From: a virus
Taxonomy: Duplodnaviria > Heunggongvirae > Uroviricota > Caudoviricetes
Virus record (IMG/VR): IMGVR_UViG_2534681832_000034
Location: 1-18,593 of that record
Direction: 5' to 3' (one strand)
DNA: 18,593 bases
Part shown: positions 3,240-18,593 of the stretch, in pieces
Layout: each line of letters starts with the position of its first letter
Position numbering within the stretch: the first letter of the stretch is position 1
Position numbers and translations under genes: made by a program
The notes under the pieces: model-generated
Told to the model about the DNA's origin: nothing
Database searches by the model: none
What the model saw: only the letters and a program-made list of their open reading frames with translations

Positions 3240-3307
3240 AGATAACATTACGCGTCCTGCAAGACGCTTAACATTAATCTGAGGCCATATCTATGCTTAG
3301 CATACGT
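3240..3307 (-). ncRNA. sok: Predicted Sok-like antisense RNA covering the mok start region
   Basis: Minus-strand promoter: -35 TTGACC (plus 3337-3332), 18-bp spacer, -10 TAATCT (plus 3313-3308). The transcript would run antisense across the mok ATG (3293). A stem GCGTC/GACGC at about 3251-3266 is a candidate 3' structure. Ends are approximate. Confidence 0.45.
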
Positions 3308-3499
3308 AGATTAGCCTCTTACCGACCAAAAGGTCAAGGAGAAGCAGGCTATGAAGCAGCAAAAAGCGATGTTAATCGCTCTGATCGTCATCTGTTTAAC
3401 CGTCATTGTGACGGCACTGGTAACGAGGAAAGACCTCTGCGAGGTACGAATCCGAACCGGCCAGACGGAGGTCACTGTCTTCACAGCCTACGAATCTGA
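3293..3499 (+). CDS. mok: mok-like overlapping reading frame (translation-coupling ORF of the hok locus)
   Basis: ATG 3293; 68-codon ORF overlapping almost all of hok in another frame, as in hok/mok/sok loci. Confidence 0.5.
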   Translation: MLSIRRLASYRPKGQGEAGYEAAKSDVNRSDRHLFNRHCDGTGNEERPLRGTNPNRPDGGHCLHSLRI

Positions 3500-3506
3500 A
3501 AGGTAA
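3351..3506 (+). CDS. hok: Hok/Gef-family type I toxin, 51 aa
   Basis: Translation MKQQKAMLIALIVICLTVIVTALVTRKDLCEVRIRTGQTEVTVFTAYESER matches the Hok family pattern (LIVxCLT...LTRKxLCExRxRxG..EV.AF.AYES). AAGGAG precedes the ATG. The leader (GGTGCTTGAGGC..., TAGCCTCTTACCG, CAAGGAGAAG) resembles the R1 hok mRNA as I remember it. Confidence 0.8.
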   Translation: MKQQKAMLIALIVICLTVIVTALVTRKDLCEVRIRTGQTEVTVFTAYESER

Positions 3507-3577
3507 GAGACCTGGCGGGGAGAGATCTCCGCCACTCTTAGTGTGTCAGGTATCCTCAATGCACCCTTTCATCTCCA

Positions 3578-3606
3578 AATAAAAAAGCTCCCGAAGGAGC
3601 TTTAAA
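3578..3606. terminator. Bidirectional rho-independent terminator (end of minus-strand late operon; probable hok mRNA 3' end)
   Basis: Stem GCTCC (3587-3591), loop CGAA, GGAGC (3596-3600), flanked by A6 upstream and TTT downstream, so the minus-strand transcript ends hairpin + U6. Confidence 0.7.
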
Positions 3607-3622
3607 ATACAAGGGATGACTC

Positions 3623-4132
3623 TTAATCCCACTCAATCCAGTTGTAGACGATACGAAGTGACGGGCGCACAGCGGCAGTCACATCTTCGGTACTAAAGTC
3701 GATTGCATCACTGTAGATTTTGCAGTCCAACATTTCAATTGTTGTAGCAGCTTTTGTTACAGCGTTAACCCCGGAAGATTTGGATTCAGGGGTAGCAGCC
3801 ATCGTGATATCAACATAGTCCTTCGCCGCAATGCGATCCTTGATGAACTGAAGAATATCGCCTTCGATAGTCTCCACGCACTGGACCTGGATTTCCCCAG
3901 AGTTTCGAATTGGTCCGTGCTGGTTGAACTTCACACCATTCGGACCATAGTCCTCCACATCCTCGCGGGTCATTTCAGGAATTTGCGACGTGCGAACCAG
4001 TACGCTGATATCTTCATGGCCTGCAACAGTGAGCTGGAATTCAGAAGATACCAGTCGTTCGCCTTTGGCCGCGTTGGCAGTATAGCGGCCCTTAATAAAT
4101 TTACGGTTTCCCTTAGTGTTATTGTGCCCCAT
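3623..4132 (-). CDS. Late-operon structural/morphogenesis protein, 169 aa (function unassigned)
   Basis: ATG at 4132 (minus) with AAAGGA SD; TAA at 3623-3625; last gene before the terminator. Confidence 0.8.
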   Translation of the reverse strand: MGHNNTKGNRKFIKGRYTANAAKGERLVSSEFQLTVAGHEDISVLVRTSQIPEMTREDVEDYGPNGVKFNQHGPIRNSGEIQVQCVETIEGDILQFIKDRIAAKDYVDITMAATPESKSSGVNAVTKAATTIEMLDCKIYSDAIDFSTEDVTAAVRPSLRIVYNWIEWD

Positions 4133-4143
4133 ATAAAATCCTT

Positions 4144-4725
4144 TTACTGGAACGCCCGAACAATATCGGAGCTGTTATATATCGAAGAACCGGTCAACTG
4201 GAGGTTGACGGTGTTTTTCAGGAAATGCCCATTGCTGTCCCTGGGCGCATCGAGATCGAAACTTATGTCCTGGATAGCGACATCAATGATGTTGATCTGG
4301 CGACCAATGTTTAGCGTCACACGCTCCGGGATTCGACCACCAATACTGGCATCTTTAAGTTCCGGGCTAATCATCGCTGACAATGCGGCGATAGCTCCTG
4401 AAACCTCCGTGAATGGATCAAACAAAGCGATGAAAGTTACTGGCAGCGTGAAAGTTGGCGGTGTTCCCCCCTCCCAAACCATTAAGCTGTTCCAACGGGC
4501 CACCGACGTTGTTTCAGTACCAACCTGCGCAAAACCACTGAAGGCACCAGCAACAGACCCCATGGACATACCGGTAAACGGCGCTTCCCAATTCTGGGCC
4601 ATGTTCATTGCTGCCCCCTGGCTGATATATCCGGTAACCTGGTACTGAGAGTTCGTTAAAGTAACTTTCAGAAATGGCGATACACCGTCAGCCTGGCTGT
4701 AAACCCCATAAGGTATAGGTGCCAT
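4144..4725 (-). CDS. Late-operon structural/morphogenesis protein, 193 aa (function unassigned)
   Basis: ATG at 4725 (minus); Gly/Ala/Ser/Thr-rich composition typical of virion proteins; packed 11 nt upstream of the next gene. Confidence 0.8.
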   Translation of the reverse strand: MAPIPYGVYSQADGVSPFLKVTLTNSQYQVTGYISQGAAMNMAQNWEAPFTGMSMGSVAGAFSGFAQVGTETTSVARWNSLMVWEGGTPPTFTLPVTFIALFDPFTEVSGAIAALSAMISPELKDASIGGRIPERVTLNIGRQINIIDVAIQDISFDLDAPRDSNGHFLKNTVNLQLTGSSIYNSSDIVRAFQ

Positions 4726-4760
4726 TCAAGTTAAAGGCCGGAGTTCTCCGGCCTCCTCCT

Positions 4761-5576
4761 TTAGCCAAGGCGCTTACGGCGCAGTTTCATTGACTTTTTG
4801 CGGGCAAGTTTTGCCGCACCCGTCTGGGCTTTTCGACGCGCTTTTTTCAGCGCCGATTTTTGAGCCGCAGTCAGACGTTTTTTACGCAGGCGTTTACGGA
4901 TGAGTTTGATCTCACCGTTACGAACAACCTTCTTAAATGCTTCAGTCAGCATTTCATCAGAAGTGCCAGCAACAACAAACGCCGCTTCCAGTTCGTCACG
5001 GTCGTCGCTATCTAAACCAGCGATAGAGGCACCAACATCAGCAGCTGCGTCGTCGTCTTCATCGTCAGCCAGTGCTTCGATCAGGTCATCATCTACACCG
5101 CATGCTGCGAGGAAGTCAGCAACATTTGCCCATGCTTCGTTATAGGCATCGTCCTGTTCTTCTGTAACTTCGGAGTCGTCGTCATCAGAGATACCAGCGA
5201 TAGCCTGAACGAAACCATCAAGGGAGTCGAAAGTCAGATCACCGCTATCAGCCCAGGCGAAAACGGCGTCGGCCGCATCACTCAACGCATTCTGCATAGC
5301 ACTTCTATTTGCAGCTTCCAGAATCATCTGGTGCGCCTGTTCGACGGTCCATTCTTTACCGTCTTTCCCTTCCAGGATTTGCTCAGGAGCCGGGGCAGAT
5401 GGAACGTTATCGTTAGTCTGTGCCGCCGGTTCCGGATTATTATTAATAACCGGATCTGTTGGCTGTTCGGCGCTTGCTCGGGCAGACTCCATCAGCTGCA
5501 CAGGATCAGAGTTCAAAGCGAAACGAGACAGTCCATTCCCCAAAAATGCCCCGGATTGAAAAAAGTTTTTGCTCAT
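4761..5576 (-). CDS. Highly acidic protein with poly-basic C-terminal tail, 271 aa (possible scaffold or internal/DNA-associated virion protein)
   Basis: ATG at 5576 (minus) with AAGGGA SD; long Asp/Glu runs (DDDDSEVTEEQDD, DDEDDDAAAD) followed by a C-terminal ~50 aa rich in Lys/Arg. Confidence 0.8.
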   Translation of the reverse strand: MSKNFFQSGAFLGNGLSRFALNSDPVQLMESARASAEQPTDPVINNNPEPAAQTNDNVPSAPAPEQILEGKDGKEWTVEQAHQMILEAANRSAMQNALSDAADAVFAWADSGDLTFDSLDGFVQAIAGISDDDDSEVTEEQDDAYNEAWANVADFLAACGVDDDLIEALADDEDDDAAADVGASIAGLDSDDRDELEAAFVVAGTSDEMLTEAFKKVVRNGEIKLIRKRLRKKRLTAAQKSALKKARRKAQTGAAKLARKKSMKLRRKRLG

Positions 5577-5585
5577 TGTATTCCC

Positions 5586-7175
5586 TTACTTAATAAGCAG
5601 CGGTACGCCCTGGATACGACGGGCTACGCCAGTCGGGCAGCAGGCCCAGACTACTTCCCATTTATCGAATTCCGCCTGCGTAACTTTCAGCACATACGGT
5701 TCTGTACCGTCAGCATCAGGATCACGAGGAGCCACCAGAGCGCCGGAGGCGACAAAGCGATCTAAAAGTTTGGTCATCCCTTTAGTCAGGCCAGCCGCAG
5801 TAATACCGTCCGGGCTATGCTTCATCTGTCGGGCTAACTGGACAAAGAAACGGCTGATTGCATTCATCAGGGATGGGACGTGCTGGAAGTGCAGATAGTT
5901 ATCCTGCGTGCAGCAAGTTAAAGCATCGTCGATGATCATCTGGCCAGAGGTGCCAACAGATACTTTATTGAGACGGCCCTTGACCATTGCTTCTTCGTCC
6001 GGGGTATCTTCCGGATACAGCGGTTGAATTGACGCACGAGCAATGACGGCACGTTCTTCACCAGCCGGTGAGTAATGCCAACCGCCGACATCAGAGTTTT
6101 TCTTGACGCCACGAGCTTTCGCCGCATACGCCACGCCAGACAGACCAAAGACCACACGGGATTGGGTCCATTTGTCTTTGCAGGAGAACGGGTAGTGATA
6201 GACAGCACAGCTTACATAATCGGTACCAAGTAAACCGGTATCTTCAACAGCAGAGAGCGCTTCCGTATACGTCAATGTCGGTTTGACATCAAAGAAGCCA
6301 TCAATCAGGCGATCAGAACAGATATTACCTAACGCGGTGATCGCCGCATTGTCATAGCAACCCAGGCCGAGAACAGCGGTGTACATGTACGGCGCATTGT
6401 TCAGCACCTTAACCGCACGCAGGTACGCAGCGGTTGAGATTTTCGACTGATCACCGTTGGTACCACCAGTGAACGCCAGCGATTTTTTATTTGTTACTTT
6501 CGCCGTCGAAATCAGCTCTTCATTAACAACCGCGCGCAGATATTTAGAACGGGCTTCCAGAGCCGTAGGCAGATAACACAAGCGGCCCATGTCATCTTTC
6601 GCTTCTTCCGCCAAAGACACAGTGTGTGTCTCCAGGGTCGTTACCACGCCGAGCGAAGTCGTCTGGGTCAGTTTTAAGAGGAAGCGTTCATTACCCGCGC
6701 TGTCCGCTGTTGCCGTTTCGATGGTTAACTCACGGGTAGGTGAAATACACGGATCACCATCATCAACGTAGATAGCAAAGGCTTCGCCACTATCAAGTTC
6801 AATTTCAGAACCGTATGGCAACGCACTGTAAGCCGGTTCGCCTGATTCATCGAACATAATAATCGGGAACTTCGCATCATCCGGAACAGCACGAACAACA
6901 TAACCTGACGTTTGCTGAATAGCTTCGTATACATGGCGAATTGGTTCGAACTGTGAGCCGGAAGACGGCTTCAGCGGTTCGCCGAGAACATCTTTGTAAT
7001 TGGACTCAGTAACCGCAAGAACAGTAAACGGCTTGCCACGCGCAAATACGCCAATACCAGCCCACAAGCTGCTATTTAATGCAACACCGGTAGATAACGT
7101 CGAATCGGCATTGATCGGGCTAACCGCGACGCCGGATGCATTACCTAATGACTGTTGAATTGAATATTGAGACAT
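5586..7175 (-). CDS. Large late structural protein, 529 aa (possibly contractile-tail sheath; P1 gene-22-like by position)
   Basis: ATG at 7175 (minus) with AGGGAAAG SD; TAA 5586-5588; composition typical of virion structural proteins. The sheath assignment is a weak guess from position and a C-terminal ...GAL... segment. Confidence 0.8.
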   Translation of the reverse strand: MSQYSIQQSLGNASGVAVSPINADSTLSTGVALNSSLWAGIGVFARGKPFTVLAVTESNYKDVLGEPLKPSSGSQFEPIRHVYEAIQQTSGYVVRAVPDDAKFPIIMFDESGEPAYSALPYGSEIELDSGEAFAIYVDDGDPCISPTRELTIETATADSAGNERFLLKLTQTTSLGVVTTLETHTVSLAEEAKDDMGRLCYLPTALEARSKYLRAVVNEELISTAKVTNKKSLAFTGGTNGDQSKISTAAYLRAVKVLNNAPYMYTAVLGLGCYDNAAITALGNICSDRLIDGFFDVKPTLTYTEALSAVEDTGLLGTDYVSCAVYHYPFSCKDKWTQSRVVFGLSGVAYAAKARGVKKNSDVGGWHYSPAGEERAVIARASIQPLYPEDTPDEEAMVKGRLNKVSVGTSGQMIIDDALTCCTQDNYLHFQHVPSLMNAISRFFVQLARQMKHSPDGITAAGLTKGMTKLLDRFVASGALVAPRDPDADGTEPYVLKVTQAEFDKWEVVWACCPTGVARRIQGVPLLIK

Positions 7176-7190
7176 AACTTTCCCTGTTAT

Positions 7191-7209
7191 GCGCCCCGCA
7201 CGGGGGCGC
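7191..7209 (-). promoter_or_regulatory. GC-rich intercistronic stem-loop without U-tract
   Basis: GCGCCCCG / CGGGGGCGC inverted repeat between the stop of the 7236-8942 gene and the start at 7175. Confidence 0.5.
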
Positions 7210-7235
7210 TATGTTAAACGGAGAACTTCCCCTGA

Positions 7236-8942
7236 TTACTCAGAGTCACCGGCATCAATCGTGTCGCCGCTTATGAAGTTAAGCCCGCCTTTTTTGGCCA
7301 TTGTCAGCGTTACACGAGTGAAGTAATCAGCGCCGTTGCGTGGGTGCATATCGTTGATAGCCGAACCCCACAGTGTGGTACGGTTGACCAGCGCCGGAGT
7401 GGTCGGATGCTGGAACGGGATAGCCGGGACAGCATCACCAGTCACGAAGCCTGCTTTACCCGGATTTTCATCACGGACGTAGCACAGCACATCCATCGAG
7501 CTGAACTGAATGTTCTCTGTCGTTAAGTTCTTACAAATACCAGCAGGTACTTCGTACACTTTCACGTTACCGAACAGGGTACCGATGTAGTGAACATACG
7601 GAGTCTGGATATAGTCTTCGGCTGGCTGGAAGAAATCCTTCGGCAACTGTTTGAAGAAAGATGCTGCATCAGCACCAGCAAACATCCCCATCGCACCAGA
7701 AGATTTAACGCGCTCAATAATGTCGCGATATACAGTCTGGAATTTGCCACGAATGATGGTTGCCCATACATTAAAGGACTGGTTAACCGGCAGAGCGATG
7801 TCAAAGGTGTCGGTCGCAAGAGTACGCCAGATCATGATGCGAAGACGCAGCATATCCTGTTCATGAGACAGGTATTCCTTCAGGGTGCGGAACTGTAGGG
7901 AACCCAGGTCCAGACCAAATTCACGCTGTGCTTCATACGCCGCCTGTACCGTGTGCTCAGCCGCGATAACGAACTGACTTGGGAACAGGGTGTATTTCTT
8001 CATTTCGTGGTTGATCAGCGGGATCAGCTCAGGTGCGGCTTCAATATTGATTTCCGTCTCAATTGCGATCTCAGTGCCTTTATCCGGCGCTTTGGAGAAC
8101 GACAGGGCAATCTGACCAATGTTGTAGTTCAGAGAGCAGGTAACAGTGATTTGCTCACCAGCAGCATTAGTAAACGAGTGAAGTAGGCTGCCGGAACCGT
8201 TATCAACAACAGACTTAATACGGTTAACGTAGATGTTAGTGCGACCTTTTCGGATTGGTACATTCTGGCCTTCGAAGTCTTCCATCTTGAAGGTTGCGGT
8301 TTTGCTGGTGCCATCGGAGCTTGCCACCAGCACATAGCGGCGACGTAACTGGCTGTACACACCAACGGATTGCATGTCCAGAACATCACCAGCAGCATAA
8401 GAACCAAAAGAGGAACCTGCCACGTTAAAGACTTCATAGATGTCGGACTGGTCACGCGTAACCGGAATGAAGGTACACGCATCAGCGGTAGCTGCCCCCA
8501 ACTGAACAGGCAGGATCATCGCGAGGAATAAAGGCAGACGCATAACACCGTCAGAAACGCTCATCATCTCTGCTGCGACGGATTCCAGCATCGCTTTATT
8601 AGTGGCATCCATGCTATTGCGGGTGGACTCAATCAGGCAGTTTTCCAGCGTCTGGTGGCAGGAGGCCAGAATTTCCGGACGCGGCATAGATTTATGTGCT
8701 GCGGCGTAGTCAGCCAGTGCACTTGCCCACGCTGTAGCGATTTGAGCGGTGGCATTATCAGAGATACCCGCAAAAACCGGGTCTTTACGTGCAGCTTCAA
8801 GGATAGATGCGGCACGCGCGGCATCATCTTTAATGAATTGGTTATCAGTACCGAACTGCGCAGTGCTTGCCCAGCCAAGCACAGCTTTAGAGCGTTTTGC
8901 GATATCTGCAATACGATTCTGGTATTCGCGTAAGTTACTCAA
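7236..8942 (-). CDS. Probable major head (capsid) protein precursor with N-terminal helical delta-like region (P1 gene-23-like by position)
   Basis: First gene of the late operon, directly beside parB. Proposed start is TTG at 8942 (minus) with AAGGAAG SD at 6-nt spacing; the ORF track's start at 8963 is also TTG and has no SD. No in-frame ATG for about 90 codons. N-terminal ~140 aa is Ala-rich and helical, then a Gly/Ser/Thr-rich body. Confidence 0.7.
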   Translation of the reverse strand: MSNLREYQNRIADIAKRSKAVLGWASTAQFGTDNQFIKDDAARAASILEAARKDPVFAGISDNATAQIATAWASALADYAAAHKSMPRPEILASCHQTLENCLIESTRNSMDATNKAMLESVAAEMMSVSDGVMRLPLFLAMILPVQLGAATADACTFIPVTRDQSDIYEVFNVAGSSFGSYAAGDVLDMQSVGVYSQLRRRYVLVASSDGTSKTATFKMEDFEGQNVPIRKGRTNIYVNRIKSVVDNGSGSLLHSFTNAAGEQITVTCSLNYNIGQIALSFSKAPDKGTEIAIETEINIEAAPELIPLINHEMKKYTLFPSQFVIAAEHTVQAAYEAQREFGLDLGSLQFRTLKEYLSHEQDMLRLRIMIWRTLATDTFDIALPVNQSFNVWATIIRGKFQTVYRDIIERVKSSGAMGMFAGADAASFFKQLPKDFFQPAEDYIQTPYVHYIGTLFGNVKVYEVPAGICKNLTTENIQFSSMDVLCYVRDENPGKAGFVTGDAVPAIPFQHPTTPALVNRTTLWGSAINDMHPRNGADYFTRVTLTMAKKGGLNFISGDTIDAGDSE

Positions 8943-8993
8943 TTTACTCTTCCTTAAACACAAGGCACTTGTGTGAATCCCTTTTCGGAAGAG

Positions 8994-9022
8994 ATTTTAT
9001 TGAAAGTCACTTGTTGACTTTC
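8994..9022 (-). promoter_or_regulatory. Candidate phage late promoter: -10 TAAAAT plus upstream inverted repeat
   Basis: Minus-strand TAAAAT (plus 8999-8994); inverted repeat GAAAGTCA-N5-TGACTTTC at 9002-9022, centred about 25 bp upstream of the predicted transcription start; no -35 match. Confidence 0.4.
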
Positions 9023-9075
9023 TCGTGACAAGCAATTTTTTATTTTTTCGGGAGTAGGGGAGGAAGGTAAAATCC

Positions 9076-9162
9076 AAGGTGAAATCGTGGCGATTTCACC
9101 TTGAAATTTTAGATGGATTTACTTTAAAAACAGTAGGTTAATAGTGAAATTTGAATGGCGAA
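9076..9162. other. parS: parS partition site (P1-type centromere)
   Basis: Box A heptamers ATTTCAC/GTGAAAT at 9079-9085, 9093-9099 and 9144-9150; box B hexamers TCGCCA (as TGGCGA) at 9088-9093 and 9156-9161; AT-rich central segment consistent with an IHF site; immediately 3' of parB. Confidence 0.85.
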
Positions 9163-9165
9163 AGT

Positions 9166-10167
9166 TTAAGGCTTCGGCTTTTTATCGAGGCTCTTTCTAA
9201 GGATATGCCCAATCATCCTGTCGAGTTCTTCCTGTAGCTCTTTTGAAAGTCGATTAAACTCATAAGAAAATGCACGGCCTTTCACGCGCTTCCTTGCAAA
9301 GCGATCCTTGTCCTCAAATTTCCATAATTCAGTAACTACGGACTTATCTTTAGAACCTTTATCCGTGAGTAGTGAGGCTTCCTTTGTTATCAAGCGCAGG
9401 ATTTTATTTTTAACTTCATCTTCGGCCATTTCTTCAATGGATAAGATGTCGTTTATTTCCGGGGATATGTTTTGAATAAGCTGATCAAACTCTAAATTCT
9501 TGTTCCCCATTTCGTCGCCAACAGCACAAAGCGTTTTGTAGTCCGAAAAGGTTAATTCCGACTGCACAGGGAAAAGGGCGACTAATTCTTCCGGAGCACT
9601 CGCTGCCTGGAGAGCACGCGTGACCTTAGCCTGAGACAGCCCTTCTTTGGCTGCAATATCCTTCTGACTCATCCCATCATTTTTCATTCGCATCAAACGC
9701 AGACCTATTTCTCGAATGCTGTGCTGCAATGCTGTCTGAACGTCTTTCGCTAAATTTTGCGCTTCCTGAACGCTGATCTCCTGGTCCGTGACTAAAACCC
9801 GCAACCCTACGTTCTCTAAGATGGCAGAAGCTCGACGCCGGGAACCATCCAAAATTTCAATTTTCCCTGTACCCCGTCTAACACCTATTGCAGGGTAAAA
9901 TTGCTGATGCTTAATAGTGCTTCGGATACTTTTTAATGATTTTGGCGTAAGAGATGCCTGGTCACGCCCGTTGTTATGCTGATCAACAAAGGTATCGCTT
10001 TCTACCTGGTTCGGAGGTATTACCTCTTCAATAAATGTGGCCTGGCGACCAGTTGATAACTTGAATACCTGCTCGACTCGATCGCCAGAGGCTGAAGAAC
10101 TATCAAATCCGCTTAATATTGAAGGATTAAGGGTTCGCCCAATTGTTGGTCTGTTTTTCTTTGACAT
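9166..10167 (-). CDS. parB: Partition protein ParB, 333 aa
   Basis: ATG at 10167; the length and sequence (MSKKNRPTIGRTLNPSILSG...) match my recollection of P1 ParB; parS lies directly downstream. Confidence 0.95.
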   Translation of the reverse strand: MSKKNRPTIGRTLNPSILSGFDSSSASGDRVEQVFKLSTGRQATFIEEVIPPNQVESDTFVDQHNNGRDQASLTPKSLKSIRSTIKHQQFYPAIGVRRGTGKIEILDGSRRRASAILENVGLRVLVTDQEISVQEAQNLAKDVQTALQHSIREIGLRLMRMKNDGMSQKDIAAKEGLSQAKVTRALQAASAPEELVALFPVQSELTFSDYKTLCAVGDEMGNKNLEFDQLIQNISPEINDILSIEEMAEDEVKNKILRLITKEASLLTDKGSKDKSVVTELWKFEDKDRFARKRVKGRAFSYEFNRLSKELQEELDRMIGHILRKSLDKKPKP

Positions 10168-10183
10168 GGGGGTTTCTTACTCC

Positions 10184-11380
10184 TCAGTTAGATCTGATAA
10201 ATTCAATACGGTCAAAAACTGCTTTAGCAAAATCTTCCGCGGCAATTCGCGCGTTCTTCAATGCATCAGCACTACCAACATACGTTGCCGGGTTAGCTGA
10301 AATAACAGTGTCAAAAGACTCGCCGCAACGTTCAAAACCGTCAAGGCGAGGGAGGACGACATCGAGCATATCCCCACCGAACACTTCTTTAGCCAGGCTA
10401 TGGCAATACTTATGATCTGCCTTGTTACTCAACTTGGACATAAAACCAATGTTAGTCGCAAGCTGGCACTCGCAGCCTTCATCCGAAATGAGTTTCACCA
10501 ACTCAGGAAGGCGGGCAACGTATTTAAGCGATGAGTGGAAATCGACAGTTGCTGGCGGCAGAGGTGTAAACAGTATATTGGCCGAGGCCAAAGCATTTTT
10601 CAGGAAGGCGTCAAGGTGAGGACCACTATCAACGAGGATAAAGTCATAATCGCTCTTCAGCTTATCAATCACATTTTCTTTCAGGACAGCATGGATGTTC
10701 TGACCCGGTAGATGCTCATTGCACAGCTCTCTCCAATCGGATGCAATAAAGGCATCGTCAATCGACGCAGGCATAACGTCAACCCCAGGTACAACAGAAG
10801 GAACAATAAACTCCTCTAACAGCTCTTCACGGCTTACATTCTGCAACATAGCCTGTGCAGATGTTGCGTTTACGATACCAATAGAGTGTTTATGGCTTAA
10901 AAACATCGTTGCTGAAGATTGCGGATCAAGGTCAATAACCAGAATCCTTAAATCTTCCATCAGAAGATGAGGGTGAGCACGCATTGCATGCGCCAGAGAA
11001 ACCGTCGATACAGTTTTTGACACACCGCCTTTAAGATTGGAGATGAAAATCACATACGCTTCGCTGTAGCGATCCCGGTATTTTGGCACTCCGCGATGTT
11101 CATATATGTCAATGATGTTCTGAATTGACATCGCATATTTCATTGAAGAGCCAGCAGGGCGTTTATCGAAAACATAACCCTTTTCTTCCATTTCACTTAC
11201 GGCATAGTCAACGTTCGCTCGAGTCAGTAGAGGCAATTTTGCCAGTGCCGCTTTCGCATAGACCTGGTAAAACTCGTTCGCGTGTAGCTCATCCTTTTGC
11301 AACTGTACTTGTTCAGTCAGAACATTGAGCATTCTGTTTGCTCTTTGAGCAACCTTGTGAAGCTGGCTGGAATCACTCAT
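10184..11380 (-). CDS. parA: Partition ATPase ParA (type Ia, N-terminal DNA-binding extension), 398 aa
   Basis: ATG at 11380 with AAGGATGA SD; deviant Walker A NLKGGVSKT; 398 aa as remembered for P1 ParA. Confidence 0.95.
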   Translation of the reverse strand: MSDSSQLHKVAQRANRMLNVLTEQVQLQKDELHANEFYQVYAKAALAKLPLLTRANVDYAVSEMEEKGYVFDKRPAGSSMKYAMSIQNIIDIYEHRGVPKYRDRYSEAYVIFISNLKGGVSKTVSTVSLAHAMRAHPHLLMEDLRILVIDLDPQSSATMFLSHKHSIGIVNATSAQAMLQNVSREELLEEFIVPSVVPGVDVMPASIDDAFIASDWRELCNEHLPGQNIHAVLKENVIDKLKSDYDFILVDSGPHLDAFLKNALASANILFTPLPPATVDFHSSLKYVARLPELVKLISDEGCECQLATNIGFMSKLSNKADHKYCHSLAKEVFGGDMLDVVLPRLDGFERCGESFDTVISANPATYVGSADALKNARIAAEDFAKAVFDRIEFIRSN

Positions 11381-11500
11381 CGAAAGTCATCCTTTATGCT
11401 GTATTTTTGAATTTAATTAAAAATGCTGCATAAAATAATAATGTATGCGTAGATGCTTGTACATGGCATTCTCTGCATGTTTTGTTCATTTTGCACGATT
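11381..11500 (-). promoter_or_regulatory. par operon promoter/operator region
   Basis: AT-rich region upstream of parA with an imperfect inverted repeat (AAAAATGCTGCAT ... CTGCATGTTTTG), compatible with a ParA autoregulatory operator. Confidence 0.45.
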
Positions 11501-11520
11501 GAGAGTTACAAGAAAGGCAC

Positions 11521-11541
11521 AAAAAAGCCCCGTTCAGGGGC
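11521..11541 (-). terminator. Rho-independent terminator
   Basis: Minus-strand stem GCCCC / GGGGC (loop TGAAC) followed by T6 (plus A6 at 11521-11526), 8 nt after the stop at 11549. Confidence 0.7.
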
Positions 11542-11548
11542 ATCAGTG

Positions 11549-11953
11549 TTATTTGCTAAGAGCAGCGAATAATCGTTCGAAATCGATAGTATCTATAGCA
11601 CGCGTAAGCGCCGGAAGTTCAGCCTCAAAGTACCCGTGTCGATCGTAAAAGAAGGGACCGAAGAGCGAGGCATGTTGGATTCTACTTCGCCCCAGCCCGG
11701 ACACACAGTTAAGCCCATTACCGGCTAAAAGGCTAAAAAACTTCTCTGGATTATCGTGGTAAAGCTGAGAATCAATGGTGGCGGTTAACTCTTCCATAGG
11801 GAAGCACACCCGCCCTGTCTCCCAGGGATATTTAGTCCGAAGCATAAACATTGCTTTCAGCAATTCACATTGAGCGCGGATCGCGTCCGGTTCATAGCCA
11901 GATATGGAGACATAAGCCACGTCCCTCATTCCTGCGTCATCTTTGAAAGTCAC
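11549..11953 (-). CDS. C-terminal portion of the amber-split gene (annotated alone it is a 134-aa ORF with a poor start)
   Basis: No convincing SD at GTG 11953 or ATG 11929; in the same frame as the upstream ORF and separated from it by one TAG; terminator directly after its stop. Confidence 0.5.
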   Translation of the reverse strand: MTFKDDAGMRDVAYVSISGYEPDAIRAQCELLKAMFMLRTKYPWETGRVCFPMEELTATIDSQLYHDNPEKFFSLLAGNGLNCVSGLGRSRIQHASLFGPFFYDRHGYFEAELPALTRAIDTIDFERLFAALSK

Positions 11954-12022
11954 GATAGAAGTAACATCCAGTTCTTTTTCGAAAGAGCGAGCAGCATCTA
12001 CTGGACGCTGAAGTAAATCATT

Positions 12023-12358
12023 CTACTTAATGCGCTCGAGAATCCCTCCCCACATATCATTTAGATATTCGATATGAGCCAAAACCTTATCAAGACACTC
12101 TCGTGTAAACCATTCAGTATGCCCGCCACCGGCGCTTTTCTCCCACGGCGCATTCCAGGGGAAAAAGGTTGCGTGTAAAGCCCGCTCAAGATTAACCATT
12201 GCCAAACGCGTACCACGATAGACCCGTGAAAGCGCAAAATCGGGACTCACTTGTAGCCCTTTAAACCGTGCCAATGGACCACATGAAATGCCGATTTTAA
12301 AAGTATCTCCGTTCTCCGGCACCAGAACGTAGAGGTAGTGTTGTTTCTCTTCTTGCAT
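12023..12358 (-). CDS. GIY-YIG / T5orf172-like domain protein, 111 aa as annotated (ends at an in-frame amber)
   Basis: ATG at 12358; motif HYLYVLVPENGDTFKIGISCGPLARFKGL resembles the GIY-YIG/T5orf172 core; stop is TAG at 12023-12025. Confidence 0.6.
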   Translation of the reverse strand: MQEEKQHYLYVLVPENGDTFKIGISCGPLARFKGLQVSPDFALSRVYRGTRLAMVNLERALHATFFPWNAPWEKSAGGGHTEWFTRECLDKVLAHIEYLNDMWGGILERIK

Positions 12359-12393
12359 ATCAATACCACTGCTTGATGAGAACCGCGCAAATG

Positions 12394-12649
12394 TTGACTA
12401 TGCGCGAAAGTTAATGTGAATAGTTGACTATGCGCGATGTGACTACAGTCAAAAGTTGACTGTAGTCGATTTAACTCCACCAAAGATCGACTATGTAAGA
12501 TATTGTCGGGAGAAACGTTGACTATACGCGATGAAATGACCCTAAAAGCCATCTCAATAGCGACTTGCAGAATATTGACGCCAGCAAAAATCCACCAGCG
12601 TCAACGAATGTCGCCTATAGTCAACTTCTCGCTATCGCATATAGTCAAT
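12394..12649. repeat. incA: incA-like iteron array (about 9-10 RepA-binding repeats, mixed orientation)
   Basis: Repeats of core TTGACTRTRCGCGA and its reverse complement (e.g. 12394-12407, 12424-12437, 12441-12452, 12456-12469, 12518-12531, 12613-12625, 12637-12649), immediately 3' of repA. Confidence 0.8.
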
Positions 12650-12650
12650 A

Positions 12651-13535
12651 TTATGGATTGCGCTTATGGATCTGAAAGCCGATTTTCCTGCCGTTTTTTA
12701 TCTCTGAAAATTTAAGATATTCAATAGCTTCCAAATCTTTCATGGCTTTTCTGATAACGCTATTTTGCACGCTAACGGATGATTTGAGATTAAGCCTTGC
12801 TCTAAGGCGCTCAATGCTGACAGGTGCCGGGTTGGCGGGTAGAGCCTCAAAGAATGTATACAGTACCTTGGCCGTCTCTTTGCGCCCGAGCTTATCCAGC
12901 ATCTTCAGCTTCAGGATTCGCTTATAGTCAACATAGTAAAGTTCAGATAGCTGTTTCTGCGGCTGGATCTCGATAACATCAAGCTCGGTATTCAGGCTGC
13001 TATATGCCAACAAGTTGACGTTAATGTTATTGAGATGACCTTTTGCCGCCGGGAAGCGGAATTTGACAACTGTCTGCTGAATGCGTGTCAGAGAGTCATC
13101 AATACTTTTACGGAACGCCTTTGAAAGGCGCTTACGTGGATAGCCGCATCGATCGGCAAACTCGGAGAATGGCAGGGTGATTATGCCGTCATCATCAGGT
13201 GCGTAGTCAAACAACGCGGAGGTTATGCCCACCCACACCTTAAAATCAGTATCCATATCCAGGCGTGGACCATGAATTTCAATTCCCTCATAGCCTTCCT
13301 GCTCAACAATTTTGAGGCTTGATAGTTCTTCGGTTGCGTTCGTTGTGTTTGTAGTAACTGACGATCCGCGACGTAGTGCCACATTGGTAGATTTTAAGGT
13401 TGGCACAAACACACCTAAGCGCAACAAAGCAATGGGTTGTATAGTGCTATTGTTATTGGGTTTCAGGCTGTGGATTTCTCCTGTATTTCCTGCAACTTCT
13501 TCAACGCTAAGGAAGCCTTTATTTTCTTCCAGCAT
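12651..13535 (-). CDS. repA: Iteron-binding plasmid replication initiator RepA, 294 aa
   Basis: ATG at 13535 with GGAG SD (GGAGAAACCACG-ATG); the ORF track's 13592 start is a TTG lying inside the origin region. Flanked by iteron arrays on both sides. Confidence 0.85.
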   Translation of the reverse strand: MLEENKGFLSVEEVAGNTGEIHSLKPNNNSTIQPIALLRLGVFVPTLKSTNVALRRGSSVTTNTTNATEELSSLKIVEQEGYEGIEIHGPRLDMDTDFKVWVGITSALFDYAPDDDGIITLPFSEFADRCGYPRKRLSKAFRKSIDDSLTRIQQTVVKFRFPAAKGHLNNINVNLLAYSSLNTELDVIEIQPQKQLSELYYVDYKRILKLKMLDKLGRKETAKVLYTFFEALPANPAPVSIERLRARLNLKSSVSVQNSVIRKAMKDLEAIEYLKFSEIKNGRKIGFQIHKRNP

Positions 13536-13582
13536 CGTGGTTTCTCCATATGTGGCGCGGCCTGGCGTCATCTGGATTGCAG

Positions 13583-13826
13583 TTATCAACAACTGTGAAT
13601 AGTCAGGCTCTAAAATCGCGTACAGTCAATGTTTCTGTCGCATATAGTCAACAATAAATCGCGTGCAGTCAACAATAAATCGTGCACAGTCAACATAAAA
13701 TCGCGTATAGTCAATGTTGATCCCATTTCAGGCCAGAAATGGCGCGGCTTACAGCGATCCGGGATCTTCTTTGGATCTTCCTGGGTTCTCTTTAGGATCT
13801 GTTTATTGGATCTATGCTGTGGATAA
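13583..13826. promoter_or_regulatory. Plasmid replication origin: DnaA boxes + iterons + GATC cluster
   Basis: DnaA-box-like TTATCAACA (13583-13591); perfect DnaA box TGTGGATAA (13818-13826); six GATC sites between 13719 and 13812. Confidence 0.75.
13613..13714. repeat. Origin iterons (incC-like): five direct repeats at ~21-bp phasing
   Basis: AAATCGCGTACAGTCAA (13613-13629), CTGTCGCATATAGTCAA, AAATCGCGTGCAGTCAA, AAATCGTGCACAGTCAA, AAATCGCGTATAGTCAA (13698-13714), all in one orientation directly upstream of repA. Confidence 0.85.
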
Positions 13827-13834
13827 GTTGAATA

Positions 13835-13855
13835 AACCGGCCAACATAGCCGGTT
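13835..13855 (-). terminator. Hairpin after the 13869-14261 gene (weak terminator candidate)
   Basis: AACCGGC / GCCGGTT stem with 7-nt loop; the downstream minus-strand sequence is only moderately T-rich. Confidence 0.3.
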
Positions 13856-13868
13856 GGAAGGAAGGGTA

Positions 13869-14261
13869 TTATTCTACGCTTTCGATAAGAAGACCATGTT
13901 CATAACATTTAAGCTCATCGCCTTCGTACAGGAATTGGTATCCAATACCACCATTTTCATGGACATTAGGGAATAACTCATAACTCACTGAAGAGCAAAT
14001 CACACCAATGCAGCGATCAACGCCTTCTCGTTCTTCAGTGCTGAAAAAATCCTCTTCGGTAAGAACATGAGTACATTGCTCATCAGCATAGGTCGGAAAT
14101 ACATGCTCGATGCAATCCGGGTGTTTTAAACCAAGCTGATCGGCAAGCTCGAAAGCATGACGGTATTGTTCAGATCCTGGCTTGCCAACAGTGATGTGCT
14201 CAATTTTGTAGATTGAAGTCGCTTTGTTGATAGTTTGCTTTACTGTTACTTTATCAGACAT
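13869..14261 (-). CDS. Hypothetical protein, 130 aa
   Basis: ATG at 14261 with AAAGGGA SD; stop 13869-13871; 11 nt downstream of the lipoprotein gene. Confidence 0.75.
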   Translation of the reverse strand: MSDKVTVKQTINKATSIYKIEHITVGKPGSEQYRHAFELADQLGLKHPDCIEHVFPTYADEQCTHVLTEEDFFSTEEREGVDRCIGVICSSVSYELFPNVHENGGIGYQFLYEGDELKCYEHGLLIESVE

Positions 14262-14272
14262 AAAAATCCCTT

Positions 14273-14605
14273 TTAGTTACCGCTGATAGCGCGGTTGTAA
14301 TCATTAACGTTGCGATTCTTCCTGTTAATCCCCATCAGCATCGTTTCTGTATCGAGGATATACGCTGGCAGATCATCAAAATATTCACTGCTAAACTCTG
14401 GCATCCTGCACATAAACGCACTTTTGGGGGCAGGGTGGTTAACCTTTGTCGGCGTCGGCGTTAAATTCGCTGATCGACTCCCGGAGCAACCGCTGAGTGT
14501 CAGCAGGAATGCGCTGGCGAACATTACCCGCCGCAACCAGTTGTTTCTGAACTTCAGCTTTTCGTTCCATTTGCCTGTCAGCATATTTGGCTTGTTCTGA
14601 TTCAT
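14273..14605 (-). CDS. Lipoprotein (signal peptidase II lipobox LTLSG-C), start codon ambiguous
   Basis: Lipobox L-T-L-S-G-C with Ser at +2 and a Pro/Thr-rich mature region (TPTPTKVNHPAPK). ATG 14605 has AGGAAG SD; alternative starts at 14584 and 14524. The 5' 167 bp overlap the upstream gene in another frame. Confidence 0.7.
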   Translation of the reverse strand: MNQNKPNMLTGKWNEKLKFRNNWLRRVMFASAFLLTLSGCSGSRSANLTPTPTKVNHPAPKSAFMCRMPEFSSEYFDDLPAYILDTETMLMGINRKNRNVNDYNRAISGN

Positions 14606-14861
14606 TTTTCACTTCCTGGCTGTGAAAATGTTGCTCTGCTTTGTTCATCGTCTCAATGGTCTGGTTAAGATCCATTATTGACTTATCACGTTCCTTAACA
14701 GCCTGATCAAGACTGCCAATTTTCTCCATGGCTTGCTTTAGCTGATGACGTTCCCATGCAAACCCAGCACCAACAAGTGCGCAAATCAGAACAAGAACAC
14801 CAGTAGCAGCAAGTTTCTCCTTCAAAGACAAAGCTGTTTTTAACGTAGAAAAGAATGACAT
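14439..14861 (-). CDS. N-terminally membrane-anchored coiled-coil (periplasmic) protein, 140 aa
   Basis: ATG at 14861 with AGGAGG SD (the ORF track's 14888 start is TTG); one hydrophobic segment (LAATGVLVLICALVGAGFAW) then a charged helical region. Confidence 0.75.
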   Translation of the reverse strand: MSFFSTLKTALSLKEKLAATGVLVLICALVGAGFAWERHQLKQAMEKIGSLDQAVKERDKSIMDLNQTIETMNKAEQHFHSQEVKNESEQAKYADRQMERKAEVQKQLVAAGNVRQRIPADTQRLLRESISEFNADADKG

Positions 14862-15082
14862 GTCTTCCTCCTGAAGAAAAATTATCAATGAAGTCCTTTG
14901 TTACCGTGCCGCTTTGTTTAATTCATCAAGAACAGAATCAGGAACCAAAGCGGCGACTACGCTGGCTGTGCTGGCCTTATTTGCTGATGCTTCCGCAAGC
15001 GCGGTACCGATAGCATGGTTATAAGCAGTGAACCGCCCCGGAAATCCTGGAGACTAAACTCCCTGAGAAAGAGGTAAACAGG

Positions 15083-15409
15083 ATGACTAAAAATACTCGT
15101 TTTTCCCCCGAAGTCCGTCAGCGGGCGATTCGTATGGTTCTGGAAAGTCAGGATGAATATGACTCACAGTGGGCGGCAATTTGTTCCATTGCCCCAAAGA
15201 TTGGCTGTACGCCGGAGACTCTGCGTGTCTGGGTTCGCCAGCATGAGCGGGATACCGGGGGCGGTGATGGTGGGCTCACCAGCGCTGAACGTCAGCGTCT
15301 GAAAGAGCTGGAACGTGAAAATCGTGAACTGCGCCGCAGTAACGATATCCTTCGCCAGGCTTCCGCTTATTTTGCGAAGGCGGAGTTCGACCGCCTCTGG
15401 AAAAAATGA
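15083..15409 (+). CDS. IS3-family transposase OrfA (HTH, leucine-zipper)
   Basis: ATG 15083; [21 protein letters not shown]... typical IS3-family OrfA; ends in the A-run frameshift window. Confidence 0.9.
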
Positions 15410-16296
15410 TGCCACTGCTGGATAAGCTGCGTGAGCAGTACGGGGTCGGACCGGTATGCAGCGAACTGCATATTGCCCCGTCAACGTATTACCATTGTCA
15501 GCAACAGCGACATCATCCGGATAAACGCAGTGCCCGTGCGCAGCACGACGACTGGCTGAAGAGAGAGATACAGCGCGTATACGATGAAAATCATCAGGTG
15601 TACGGTGTGCGTAAAGTCTGGCGTCAGTTGTTACGGGAAGGAATCAGGGTGGCCAGATGTACAGTGGCACGTCTCATGGCGGTTATGGGACTTGCCGGTG
15701 TTCTCCGGGGTAAAAAGGTCCGTACGACCATCAGCCGGAAAGCCGTTGCCGCAGGCGACCGCGTAAACCGTCAGTTCGTGGCAGAACGACCTGACCAGCT
15801 GTGGGTGGCTGATTTTACTTACGTCAGCACATGGCAGGGCTTCGTCTATGTGGCGTTTATCATTGATGTGTTTGCCGGATACATCGTGGGGTGGCGGGTC
15901 TCATCGTCTATGGAAACGACATTCGTGCTGGATGCGCTGGAGCAGGCGTTGTGGGCCCGTCGTCCGTCTGGCACCATCCATCACAGCGATAAAGGCTCTC
16001 AGTATGTGTCACTGGCCTATACGGAGCGACTAAAAGAAGCCGGATTACTGGCATCAACAGGGAGTACAGGCGACTCGTATGACAACGCGATGGCTGAGAG
16101 CATCAATGGTCTTTACAAAGCGGAGGTAATACACCGTAAGAGCTGGAAAAACCGTGCAGAAGTGGAACTGGCCACACTAACGTGGGTGGACTGGTATAAC
16201 AATCGACGATTGCTGGGAAGGCTGGGCCATACTCCTCCGGCAGAAGCAGAAAAAGCTTATTATGCTTCCATCGGAAACGATGATCTGGCAGCCTGA
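15406..16296 (+). CDS. IS3-family transposase OrfB (DDE catalytic domain), expressed as OrfAB by -1 frameshift
   Basis: DDE-type motifs ([23 protein letters not shown]); -1 overlap with orfA at A-AAA-AAT-G (15400-15409). Confidence 0.9.
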
Positions 16297-17010
16297 GTTC
16301 ACAGATAAAACACTCTCCAGGAAACCCGGGGCGGTTCACAGTTATGGCTACGTTGGCGCTTTCATTCGCTCGTTCATACTGCTGTTGTAACGCAGTTGTG
16401 GGTGCTGTTGTCTGGTTGAAAACAACCCCAAACTGTTCAGTTGCTACTTTCAGAGATTCAATTTGCTCTTCTGTTAGTGCTGGTGGGGGAGTGGCAGTGC
16501 CGCCGCCTGAACCAGAGCCTGACGAGCTTTCTGAGCCAGTGTTAAGGGCCTGGTTAATCTCCCCCATTGCAGCGACTAAACTTGATGTATTAAGCGCGTT
16601 AACAGCGTCCTCAAGCGATTTAGTAATATTCACATCACCAATGGCAATAGAGATCGGCAGTTCTGAAACTTCTCGCTCATTAGCACGGCAGTAAACATCC
16701 CAACCAATATCGAGTTGAAGCAGCATTGACAGATCTGCATAACCAGCCAACAGGTCCGCGTGCTTAGTTGCCAGTTCTCCAATGTTCGTTAAGCCGGTTG
16801 TGGTTGTTCTGATCGTTGAAACATAGCTGGTAATAGTGTCGGGATAGACAATTGTATCCAGAATTAATCCGGTCAATTCTTCTGCAAGCAGTTTTGCTGT
16901 GTTAGCACTGTTTCGTGCCGATGTTATGGCACCAGGTGTTTTCATCCCACCGGCGGCGGCCAATTTTTTATATGCGGATAACTGGTAGTCTTTTTCCAGC
17001 ATGATATCTC

Positions 17011-17295
17011 CTAACTTACCTGAACCAGGCCGTCTCCGGACGCTACGGTAGATCCGCATGAAACAGGGTCACCAACGCATACGATCCCTTTACCATTGAC
17101 GGTAAACCATGCCCTGGTTGATATAGCTTGCCCACCGTGCGTACTGTTTCCATCGGTATGCTGTGCATATTGCTTACCATCAACTAACACTTCGACTCCG
17201 TTGACTTTAAGTAGTGGTTCACTCTCTACAGGAGGCCTGGATGGGAATCCTCCGTGCCCCGAACAAATGCTGTCTTTTGTTGCAATGCTTGCCAC
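17011..17295 (-). CDS. PAAR-like (spike-tip type) small protein, 94 aa, GTG start
   Basis: Motifs CSGHGG, STHGGQ and GDPVSCG in a ~95-aa Gly/Val-rich protein resemble PAAR-repeat proteins. No in-frame ATG, so GTG 17295 is the likely start. Stop TAG overlaps the SD of the downstream gene. Confidence 0.55.
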   Translation of the reverse strand: MASIATKDSICSGHGGFPSRPPVESEPLLKVNGVEVLVDGKQYAQHTDGNSTHGGQAISTRAWFTVNGKGIVCVGDPVSCGSTVASGDGLVQVS

Positions 17296-17376
17296 GCCAT
17301 CACCAATTATTTGCTCTGATTTTCGTTATTTTAACTTAGGTTATTTGTGGTCTGTATGGCGTTTACTTATCGCAAA

Positions 17377-17393
17377 ATTGCTCTAATAAATAT
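17377..17393 (+). promoter_or_regulatory. P1 C1-repressor operator-like site upstream of the 17465 operon
   Basis: ATTGCTCTAATAAATAT matches the remembered C1 operator consensus at 16 of 17 positions. Confidence 0.6.
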
Positions 17394-17464
17394 TGTTTTT
17401 TATGTCGTATTTTCGGTACCATTCAGCCATCGCCCTTCAATGGGCATTTGTTTGGAGTCGTCAG

Positions 17465-17749
17465 ATGCAGATGGAGCTAATAAGCCGCAAAGAGTTCGAT
17501 AGCCGTGTAACCAGCGGTGAACTCGACAACTTGCAGGCTATCAAGGTGAAAGAAGGCTTTTGCCTCATTGGGAATCAGAGCGGAATAAATCGCGTTTTTA
17601 TGCTTCGCCGTACGGATTTGAAGCCATTTGTCTGGAAGAACGAAATTGGTCCCAGCTCATACGCTCAAACGAGGGGGTGCCACAACCTGGCCTTTTTCTA
17701 CAAAGACGAGCTTTCTGTGGTTGATATTCAAGGGTTACAACATGTTTAA
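17465..17749 (+). CDS. Hypothetical protein, 94 aa, translationally coupled to the rdgC homologue
   Basis: ATG 17465 with GGAG at 7-nt spacing (the track's 17393 start is TTG within the operator); stop TAA 17747-17749 overlaps the next ATG (ATGTTTAA). Confidence 0.7.
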
Positions 17750-18152
17750 GCACTGGAAAAACATTACTATTTATAAACTTTCTCGTGAGGCGGATCTGAC
17801 CGACTTAGAAGATAAAAAGAAAATGATCCTTTTCACGCCATGCGGTAGTCAGGATATGGCCAAGTTCGGTTTTGTATCGCCATTTGGTGATAATTCTGAA
17901 GTTATCGCTATGCATGGAAATGGTTTTATCCTTGTTGAAGCAAAGCGCGAAACAAAAATTCTTCCCCCGCCGGTTATCCAGCGAGCTATTCAAGAAAAAA
18001 TTGAAAAACTTGAGCAAGAACAAGCGCGTAAACTGAAGAAAACAGAGAAGGACTCCCTGAAAGACGAAGTTCTGCATTCTCTTCTGCCACGGGCTTTTTC
18101 AAAGTTTTCTGTTATCCAGGCGATCTACGACGGTTCATCGATAGGAATTTAA
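17742..18152 (+). pseudogene. rdgC: RdgC-homologue (recombination-associated protein), truncated to 136 aa by mobile-element insertion
   Basis: [16 protein letters not shown]...[13 protein letters not shown]...[52 protein letters not shown] closely parallels the N-terminal ~130 aa of E. coli RdgC (~300 aa); similarity stops at about 18131-18136 and a stop follows 5 codons later. Confidence 0.7.
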
Positions 18153-18593
18153 ATCCCAAAAAGATTAAAAAACACCCAAAAACGGATGTTTATTCAACAC
18201 TGCCTGCGTGCCATGAGTGCACCGCCGTCAATTAAATGGATCTTATCGATTGATACTGCATATCACTGATGGTTTTTTACCCCATTCCCCTGAAAATGGA
18301 CGCAACTTCTCCGATGCGGCTCTCAGCCGCACACCCGCTGTTGCGCCAGTGGCTCATGCATCAGGACCAGCTCTGTCAGACGGTAGCCCCGCTTCAGCCC
18401 CGTAAAACGCATCTGACCTCCGCACAGGATGCACTTCAGCGGGTCAACCTTCAGTAACCGCTGATACATCCCTCTCCACCTGATTTGCATCGCCGTCTTT
18501 CTCACCGTCTCCGTTATGACGTACACAACATCTTCCAGTAACCGGCGCTTCACCGGACTCAGGAAACCGTAGTACCTCACCATACGGAACCCC
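18137..18593 (-). mobile_element. End of an IS91-family (rolling-circle, HUH Y2 transposase) element, partial; continues beyond window
   Basis: Junction lies immediately 3' of GTTC (18133-18136), the tetranucleotide IS91-family elements insert beside; no terminal inverted repeat; transposase 3' end reads toward the junction. Confidence 0.5.
18323..18593 (-). CDS. IS91-family transposase, C-terminal fragment (N-terminus outside window)
   Basis: ORF open to the window edge; ...VRYYGFLSPVKRR... and a CxxCGG motif resemble the IS91/ISCR transposase C-terminus as I remember it; TGA at 18323-18325. Confidence 0.5.
   Translation of the reverse strand, partial: GFRMVRYYGFLSPVKRRLLEDVVYVITETVRKTAMQIRWRGMYQRLLKVDPLKCILCGGQMRFTGLKRGYRLTELVLMHEPLAQQRVCG

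Follow-up and report, generated by a model that had tools for sequence, protein, structure and literature searches.

An amber-truncated T5orf172 nuclease gene at the edge of the p0111 replicon of a P1-like phage-plasmid, and the probable homing-endonuclease-like nature of its intact product

The DNA analysed here, referred to as the window, is a stretch of 18,593 nucleotides (IMG/VR record IMGVR_UViG_2534681832_000034, positions 1 to 18,593). Its replication and partition region includes a gene interrupted by an amber codon, located between an array of iterons and the par promoter. Far from this locus, two adjacent antirepressor-type genes with KilAC/ANT domains occupy positions 55-1035 and 1199-1999, the second one also carrying a KilA-N domain. 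The features of the replication and partition region are as follows:

10184..11463, minus strand: par promoter region and parA
11483..13731, unstranded: block without homology to P1 (origin iterons, repA, incA-like iterons, nuclease gene and terminator), delimited by blastn and alignment
11517..11541, minus strand: intrinsic-terminator-like hairpin (GCCCC TGAAC GGGGC) and T tract, 3' of the gene
11549..12022, minus strand: 3' part of the gene, codons 113-269 and TAA, orphan acidic C-terminal domain
12023..12025, minus strand: amber codon TAG in place of Ser112 (TCG), from the alignment with RCS47 and Ro157c2YLVW and the one-base difference from STEC799
12023..12358, minus strand: 5' part of the gene, codons 1-111 (T5orf172 / GIY-YIG-superfamily nuclease domain) and the amber codon
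12389..12649, unstranded: about seven iterons with the core TAGTCAAC, an incA-like array that separates repA from the gene (repeat families D2 and D4)
12651..13535, minus strand: repA of the p0111 replicon type, Rep3-family initiator (Pfam Rep3_N and Rep3_C; RefSeq annotation in relatives)
13611..13718, unstranded: five origin (incC-like) iterons upstream of repA (repeat families D1 and D5)

The interval from 12358 to 11549 on the minus strand forms a single frame of 269 codons with one internal stop. The frame opens with the ATG at 12358 and runs for 111 codons to the TAG at 12025..12023; past this codon, a further 157 codons are free of stops, down to the TAA at 11551..11549. A simple calculation puts the chance of such a stop-free run at approximately (61/64)^157, or about 5e-4. 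The original prediction had described two ORFs lying in the same minus-strand frame and separated only by this TAG, and both its coordinates and the frame were correct. It had further proposed that the ORFs belong to a single gene, about 270 codons long and interrupted by a nonsense codon. Database comparisons bear this out. Matches to the 0.8-kb stretch, at 95-100% identity, come from about 390 PLSDB plasmids and 12 phage records; most of the plasmids, as well as RCS47 and Ro157c2YLVW, have it annotated as a single 810-bp CDS for a "GIY-YIG nuclease family protein". An intact version of the window's haplotype is found on the E. coli STEC799 plasmid (NZ_CP173116.1). A single base differs across the whole gene, at gene position 335 (C>A; window position 12024, G>T on the plus strand), so that codon 112 reads TCG (Ser) in the STEC799 plasmid, as it does in RCS47, Ro157c2YLVW and MOD1. 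This codon is not conserved, being Asn in a 44%-identical orthologue from a P1-like element designated L006. The gene was thus found in the P1-like relatives with a sense codon, TCG, at position 112 in most of them; homologues in the form of two separate genes were seen only among other mutants. Together, these comparisons indicate that the two ORFs are one gene with a single-base truncating nonsense mutation. In the TAG allele, translation stops just past the nuclease domain, so that the product lacks the C-terminal domain; the 3' part (11549..12022) is no longer translated as part of the protein. The stand-alone 111-residue nuclease domain might keep some of its predicted activity.

No Shine-Dalgarno-like sequence was found upstream of the first possible restart codon past the amber, GTG at 11953. 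This agrees with the claim that the second ORF lacks a credible ribosome-binding site of its own. The ATG chosen as start of the downstream fragment in RefSeq is immediately abutted by an AGGA motif. At the other end of the gene, the predicted terminator was found as a stem-loop followed by six Ts (11541..11527), which folds at -11.9 kcal/mol (z = -2.5). The hairpin is real but short, and its description as "strong" was too generous. A consensus scan revealed no promoter-like site for the nuclease gene; co-transcription with repA through the iterons is a possible arrangement.

Carriers of the gene make up approximately 8% of complete E. coli genomes (412 of 5426). The amber allele was found in 28 of these carriers, in 27 instances at 100% identity and once, in MBT-5, at 99.9%, with one base difference beyond the amber allele itself. 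All 28 records show the split annotation. The strains are mostly O111 and other STEC: O111:H8/H- (including the pO111_2 plasmid of strain 11128), two O157:H7, one O103:H2 and others. The exact 111-residue amber product occurs on at least 1000 contigs of a large protein collection; in the same collection, the intact protein of the same haplotype was found on 358 contigs. When 60 of the 412 E. coli carriers were sampled at even spacing, four had the amber allele and one another split, with nearly all the remainder annotated as a single CDS; by this measure, about 90% of the copies are intact. There is virtually no chance that the TAG reflects a sequencing or assembly error in the record. Such an error was ruled out by the recurrence of the identical TAG in 27 E. 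coli genomes finished independently of one another, which span several laboratories, serotypes and decades, and on the 1000 or more contigs mentioned above. The amber allele is inherited and widespread. The truncating mutation behind it is recent and ordinary; a successful lineage of STEC plasmids, of the pO111_2 type, has carried it along, and RefSeq already presents the allele as two CDSs.

The window's amber codon is not the only lesion of this gene. The copy in NZ_CP062896.1 (positions 301-1110) has two other amber codons, L93 (TTG>TAG) and W103 (TGG>TAG). The W103 stop allele was found on 147 contigs, a W68 stop allele on 95 Salmonella contigs, and several frameshift alleles are present as well. 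All the disruptions seen lie within the first 112 codons, in a search whose detection route is biased to N-terminal fragments. These loss-of-function alleles are independent of the amber in the window. The existence of natural mutants, along with that of relatives devoid of the gene (see below), implies that the full-length protein is dispensable for plasmid maintenance. In itself, the amber codon is of minor significance, a lineage marker of the STEC pO111_2-type plasmid; it also represents a natural knock-out, showing that maintenance of the plasmid needs no full-length protein.

These data bear on the three meanings that the original prediction had offered for the amber codon: an inactivating mutation, a suppressor-dependent allele or a readthrough site. 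The first is in line with the Ser codon (TCG) of the relatives, the Asn codon of the orthologue and the other nonsense and frameshift alleles. The other two found no support, as the stop is not conserved and the window contains no tRNA gene. Nor does a broader version of the idea fare well, in which the split would be functional, either because the amber is read through or suppressed to yield a regulated full-length protein or because the two halves act as separate polypeptides. One could invoke in its favour the fully intact downstream frame and the fact that the amber allele is common. However, a single step separates the stop from a Ser codon that is itself not conserved (Ser in about 90% of copies, Asn in L006), the second half has no start signal, other alleles have stops at other codons, and neither a tRNA nor a suppressor gene lies within the window. 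As for the intact downstream frame, it is to be expected of a recent mutation one base away from an intact allele. We consider a functional split very improbable. Since the stop is not conserved and about 90% of the copies are intact, the amber codon is best explained as a truncating mutation rather than as a programmed readthrough site.

In the comparison with phage P1, blastn identity is 95.6% up to position 13732 and 99.2% from 11482 on; between 13731 and 11483 the window shows no DNA homology to P1 (blastn of the P1 locus and alignment). One exchange breakpoint (13732) falls within oriR and precedes the origin iterons; the other (11482) lies immediately upstream of Ppar, 67 nt beyond the stop codon of the nuclease gene. 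Thus, the gene forms the right edge of a block that replaces P1 repA and incA. Within the block, four of the five origin iterons are consecutive with a 21-bp spacing, and the last incA-like iteron ends about 30 nt ahead of the ATG of the nuclease gene. The window's RepA is 40% identical to P1 RepA, while the ParA proteins are identical. In the program-made ORF list, repA opens at a TTG at 13592 (12651-13592, 313 aa), whereas relatives are annotated with 294 aa from the ATG at 13535; the longer ORF runs into the origin-proximal region. The replicon is of the p0111 type, which is named in PMC9603915, and not of the IncY type of P1.

Two further departures from related elements were noted outside this block. 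A 1309-bp IS3-family insertion sequence, absent from P1 at that point, occupies positions 15030-16338 and interrupts the upfB homologue. It has terminal inverted repeats TGAACCGCCCCGG... / ...CCGGGGCGGTTCA, is flanked by a 3-bp CAG duplication and encodes a transposase with rve and HTH_21 domains (15406-16296); it may be IS629, an element typical of STEC. At the right end of the window (17628-18593 region), the RdgC-like ORF measures 174 aa versus 302 aa in related elements. Most related plasmids cease to match at 18137, and the few that match through 18593 have annotated IS91-family transposases. The short ORF and the point at which the match ends make the gene appear truncated by another inserted element.

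The original prediction regarded the nuclease gene as cargo inserted into the classical P1 arrangement, described as one in which incA abuts the par promoter. Classical P1 indeed has no gene between incA and Ppar; the two do not literally abut, a 190-bp spacer lying between them. No remnants of the gene were detected in this spacer by blastn and tblastn, so that gain of the gene and its loss in P1 cannot be distinguished. The cargo interpretation itself had to be abandoned, the replicon being wholly different. In PLSDB the gene is found in 401 plasmids and p0111 repA in 399, with nearly identical genus counts. The gene is thus a near-constant companion of p0111 repA and not a separate insertion into the P1 arrangement. 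No p0111 "empty site" lacking the gene was found in E. coli, as the gene is nearly fixed there. Among E. coli copies, dN/dS of the gene is 0.14-0.29, compared to 0.05-0.06 for repA and approximately zero for parA, all values being derived from small counts. The intact gene is thus under purifying selection, and the low dN/dS, combined with full-length conservation in the 44%-identical orthologue, argues for a real coding gene. The gene family is uncharacterised, and travels with the replication module of the plasmid.

A domain search with the joined 269-residue protein matched residues 8-85 to the Pfam family T5orf172 (PF10544) at 27.5 bits (cut-off, 20), confirming the nuclease-like character suggested by the original prediction. 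The PHROG match is to phrog_681, "endonuclease" (E 1e-9), and the predicted structure of the N-terminal half has the features of a GIY-YIG-type fold. Full-length PHROGs matches were confined to one family of unknown function, and current annotations read either "GIY-YIG nuclease family protein" or "unknown gp57". Nine residues are invariant in the alignment of relatives: Y10, K21, G23, R31, E58, H62, E82, W83 and F84. For Y10, R31, H62 and E82, this invariance covers 23 relatives and the four full-length members of the family described below. Odn, a T5orf172 nuclease, retains and needs an Arg and a Glu residue (PMC8263062). By analogy with this enzyme, Y10, R31 and E82 are assigned putative catalytic roles. 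The intact protein matched none of the PADLOC-DB 2.0 families at E values up to 1, which leaves the suggested role in defence or anti-defence without support, and yielded no NCBIfam match.

The C-terminal half is an orphan. It has no sequence match in the PDB and matches no known DNA-binding family. Its predicted fold is weakly Rep-WH1-like / winged-helix (TM 0.35-0.42), recalling the WH1 domain found in initiators of iteron plasmids, in AlphaFold models resting on shallow alignments of 23 and 4 sequences. When its profile was compared by hhalign to six RepA proteins of three types, the probability was 0.2%. Each of the four members has an acidic C-terminal domain (pI 5.05-5.13, net charge -4 to -9), and the intact protein as a whole is acidic too (pI 5.7). 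Such a charge is unusual for a sequence-specific DNA-binding domain; the domain may bind the basic RepA protein rather than DNA. Given the weak fold scores, the absence of sequence relation to RepA and the acidity, its designation as an initiator-like winged-helix domain is to be taken as a lead only.

A search of 1.84 billion representative proteins returned about 70 relatives of the N-terminal domain. A full-length HMMER alignment was obtained with P0004 only; P0010 and P0011 were matched through the N-terminal domain, and the C-terminal motifs they have in common were seen only in an alignment. Three distant homologues, all from Logan assemblies, reside in P1-like elements (L006, L008 and L009) and occupy the same slot, in the order repA, iterons, gene, parA. 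In L006, the RepA is p0111-like (83% identical) and the gene product is 44% identical to that of the window; L008 has an IncY-like RepA (83% identical to P1 RepA) and a 25%-identical gene product; in L009, the RepA is of a third type (41-48%) and the gene product is 26% identical. In all four loci the ATG lies 23-30 nt beyond the last iteron, with iterons belonging to three unrelated sequence families. Between L006 and the window, identity is 44% for the gene, 83% for RepA and 89% for ParA, values that show the gene to evolve faster than its neighbours. The ParA proteins of L006 and L008 have no mismatch over their aligned length, and the flanking DNA is 96-98.6% identical; the two elements differ in the whole block of iterons, repA, iterons and gene. 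The right breakpoint of this exchange lies 63-84 nt beyond the gene. Thus, in two independent pairs, window/P1 and L006/L008, the exchange boundary is found near the 3' end of the gene.

The slot can also be empty. A Salmonella Wandsworth plasmid (NZ_CP146848.1), whose replicon is the closest PLSDB relative of that of L008, has this replicon type without the gene: 11 nt in the plasmid (region 1020-1460) correspond to about 0.97 kb in L008 (region 5640-7070). The difference is a clean indel that starts directly after the last iteron and spans the gene and short flanks. The gene is likewise missing from a phage-plasmid with a related RepA (L007). Relatives sharing only the N-terminal domain (P0012, P0013 and P0018) are found in contexts other than rep-par loci, which makes the iteron-adjacent niche specific to the four full-length members. 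Searched by tblastn, phages and plasmids yielded the p0111-type gene (at least 90% identical) and, beyond it, only one N-domain match from Cupriavidus; a scan of genome contigs added only one more Escherichia copy and an unrelated N-domain match from Flavobacteriaceae. The co-variation of the gene with replicon type rests on four loci, and simple linkage within a block exchanged as a whole could explain it.

Odn combines a T5orf172 domain with an initiator-derived DNA-binding domain and cuts the iterons of an origin (PMC8263062, eLife 2021). The protein described here might likewise be a weapon, its initiator-like C-terminal domain finding the iterons of a rival P1-like plasmid, a satellite or a superinfecting phage, with destruction of the rival's origin to the advantage of the carrier plasmid. 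The amber allele would then be a disarmed copy. The parallel architecture speaks for this explanation, as do the location of the gene inside the replicon module, its variation with replicon type and its rapid change relative to RepA and ParA, as expected in a conflict. On the other hand, the binding domain of Odn resembles the RepA of its target in sequence, whereas the domain examined here shows no similarity to the three RepA types tested and is acidic. Furthermore, the gene variant follows its own replicon and not that of a rival, cutting one's own type of iteron would be self-destructive unless a protection mechanism exists, and no PADLOC match was obtained. On balance, we judge a weapon, and with it a disarmed amber copy, unlikely.

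In the four loci the gene keeps a constant position, immediately upstream of Ppar and 23-30 nt from the end of the iteron array. This position and the near fixation of the gene with p0111 repA might instead reflect a domesticated role. The protein would be an accessory factor that has ceased to cut and binds RepA or iteron DNA, tuning copy number, incompatibility or par expression; the amber mutation would amount to a tolerated loss of fine control. A WH1-like acidic domain could pair with the WH1 domain of RepA, and there is a precedent for T5orf172 homing-endonuclease relatives turned regulators: CapR of PLE, which acts as a repressor (PMC10448857). Against this, the invariance of Y10, R31, H62 and E82 argues for retained activity; replication and partition proceed in the absence of the gene in P1, the Salmonella IncY-like plasmid and L007, and many loss-of-function alleles persist. 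We therefore hold both the accessory role and the corresponding reading of the amber allele to be rather improbable.

The explanation that we find probable is that the intact protein is a replicon-linked, homing-endonuclease-like nuclease and that the amber copy in the window is an inactivated product of decay. We postulate that the 269-residue protein, with an N-terminal T5orf172 endonuclease domain and a C-terminal targeting domain, would be a site-directed nuclease of the free-standing homing-endonuclease kind. The Rep-WH1-like C-terminal domain would guide it to iteron DNA of the replicon type to which it belongs, through binding of the DNA itself or by docking onto the cognate RepA. Copies devoid of the gene would be cut, and recombinational repair would copy in the gene along with neighbouring replicon DNA. 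Once fixed in the p0111 replicon, the gene would decay, the amber allele being one of several decay products. Our confidence in this mechanism is moderate, mainly since the C-terminal domain is acidic, the fold scores are weak and the family has few members.

It can be speculated, although we find it doubtful, that P1-like phage-plasmids carry a cognate nuclease for each replicon type, its gene fixed to the last iteron, which drives or polices replicon exchange as its initiator-like domain reads their own RepA or iterons. If so, the consequences could be replacement of an IncY by a p0111-type module, or elimination of competitors of the same incompatibility that lack the gene, with a specificity borrowed from the control of plasmid replication. 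Such nucleases would then be drivers of replicon-type turnover in clinically important, resistance-carrying phage-plasmids. The gene marks the edge of the module that separates IncY from p0111, the two replicon types by which P1-like phage-plasmids are classified; mcr-1 or ESBL genes are carried by many of these elements. A replicon-based homing or competition nuclease would explain the exchange of replicon modules among P1-like elements; were this true, the link between T5orf172 and initiators seen in phage-satellite conflicts would extend to plasmid biology.

Comparison with known systems puts this gene in perspective. The classical GIY-YIG homing genes are free-standing and intergenic, with weak translation signals. 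In I-TevI and the Seg proteins of T4, about 100 N-terminal residues form the catalytic domain, which a linker connects to the targeting domain at the C-terminus, for a total of about 250-270 aa. The window protein is similar to them in predicted domain order and size, and in being encoded by a free-standing intergenic gene whose translation signals are weak. It differs in that its catalytic domain belongs to the T5orf172 branch and that it has no NUMOD or helix-turn-helix module; moreover, the I-TevI and Seg enzymes are basic, whereas the window protein is acidic. A closer likeness is found with the T5orf172 homing genes of phages (ICP1 and others; Barth, Dunham and Seed, 2023). These occupy boundaries of genetic exchange and swap binding domains; one of them, gp5 of ICP1, is frameshifted in over half of the isolates (PMC10448857). 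Like the gene described here, they combine the same nuclease domain with a separate, fast-changing second domain, are single genes that border a recombination block, with essential genes on either side, and show presence/absence polymorphism and frequent disrupted alleles. In contrast, 87% of the phage T5orf172 genes carry Zn-finger binding domains (CapR, DUF723 or DUF4397; PMC10448857), whereas the window protein has no Zn finger and possesses an orphan acidic domain in its place. Furthermore, the window gene lies in the plasmid-maintenance module of a phage-plasmid, where homing is a proposal.

The Odn protein of ICP1 and the Odn-like proteins of coliphages Inny, Muut and Mt1B1_P17 share with the window protein the combination of a T5orf172 domain with a domain of initiator type, and both Odn and the window gene are tied to replicon modules swapped as units. 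The RepA_N domain of Odn is similar in sequence to the RepA of its target and the catalytic Glu is at residue 180; in the window protein the nuclease domain is N-terminal and the likeness to a Rep3-type WH1 exists at the fold level only. Odn, moreover, is carried by the enemy of the replicon, while the window gene is carried by the replicon itself. CapR of PLE shows that this gene family can be recruited for a function of the host element; it acts through a Zn-finger DNA-binding domain, unlike the window protein, which lacks a Zn finger and has conserved nuclease-type residues. Set against these systems, the family described here is a plausible new member of the T5orf172 homing or conflict nucleases, in an unusual niche, the replicon of a phage-plasmid.
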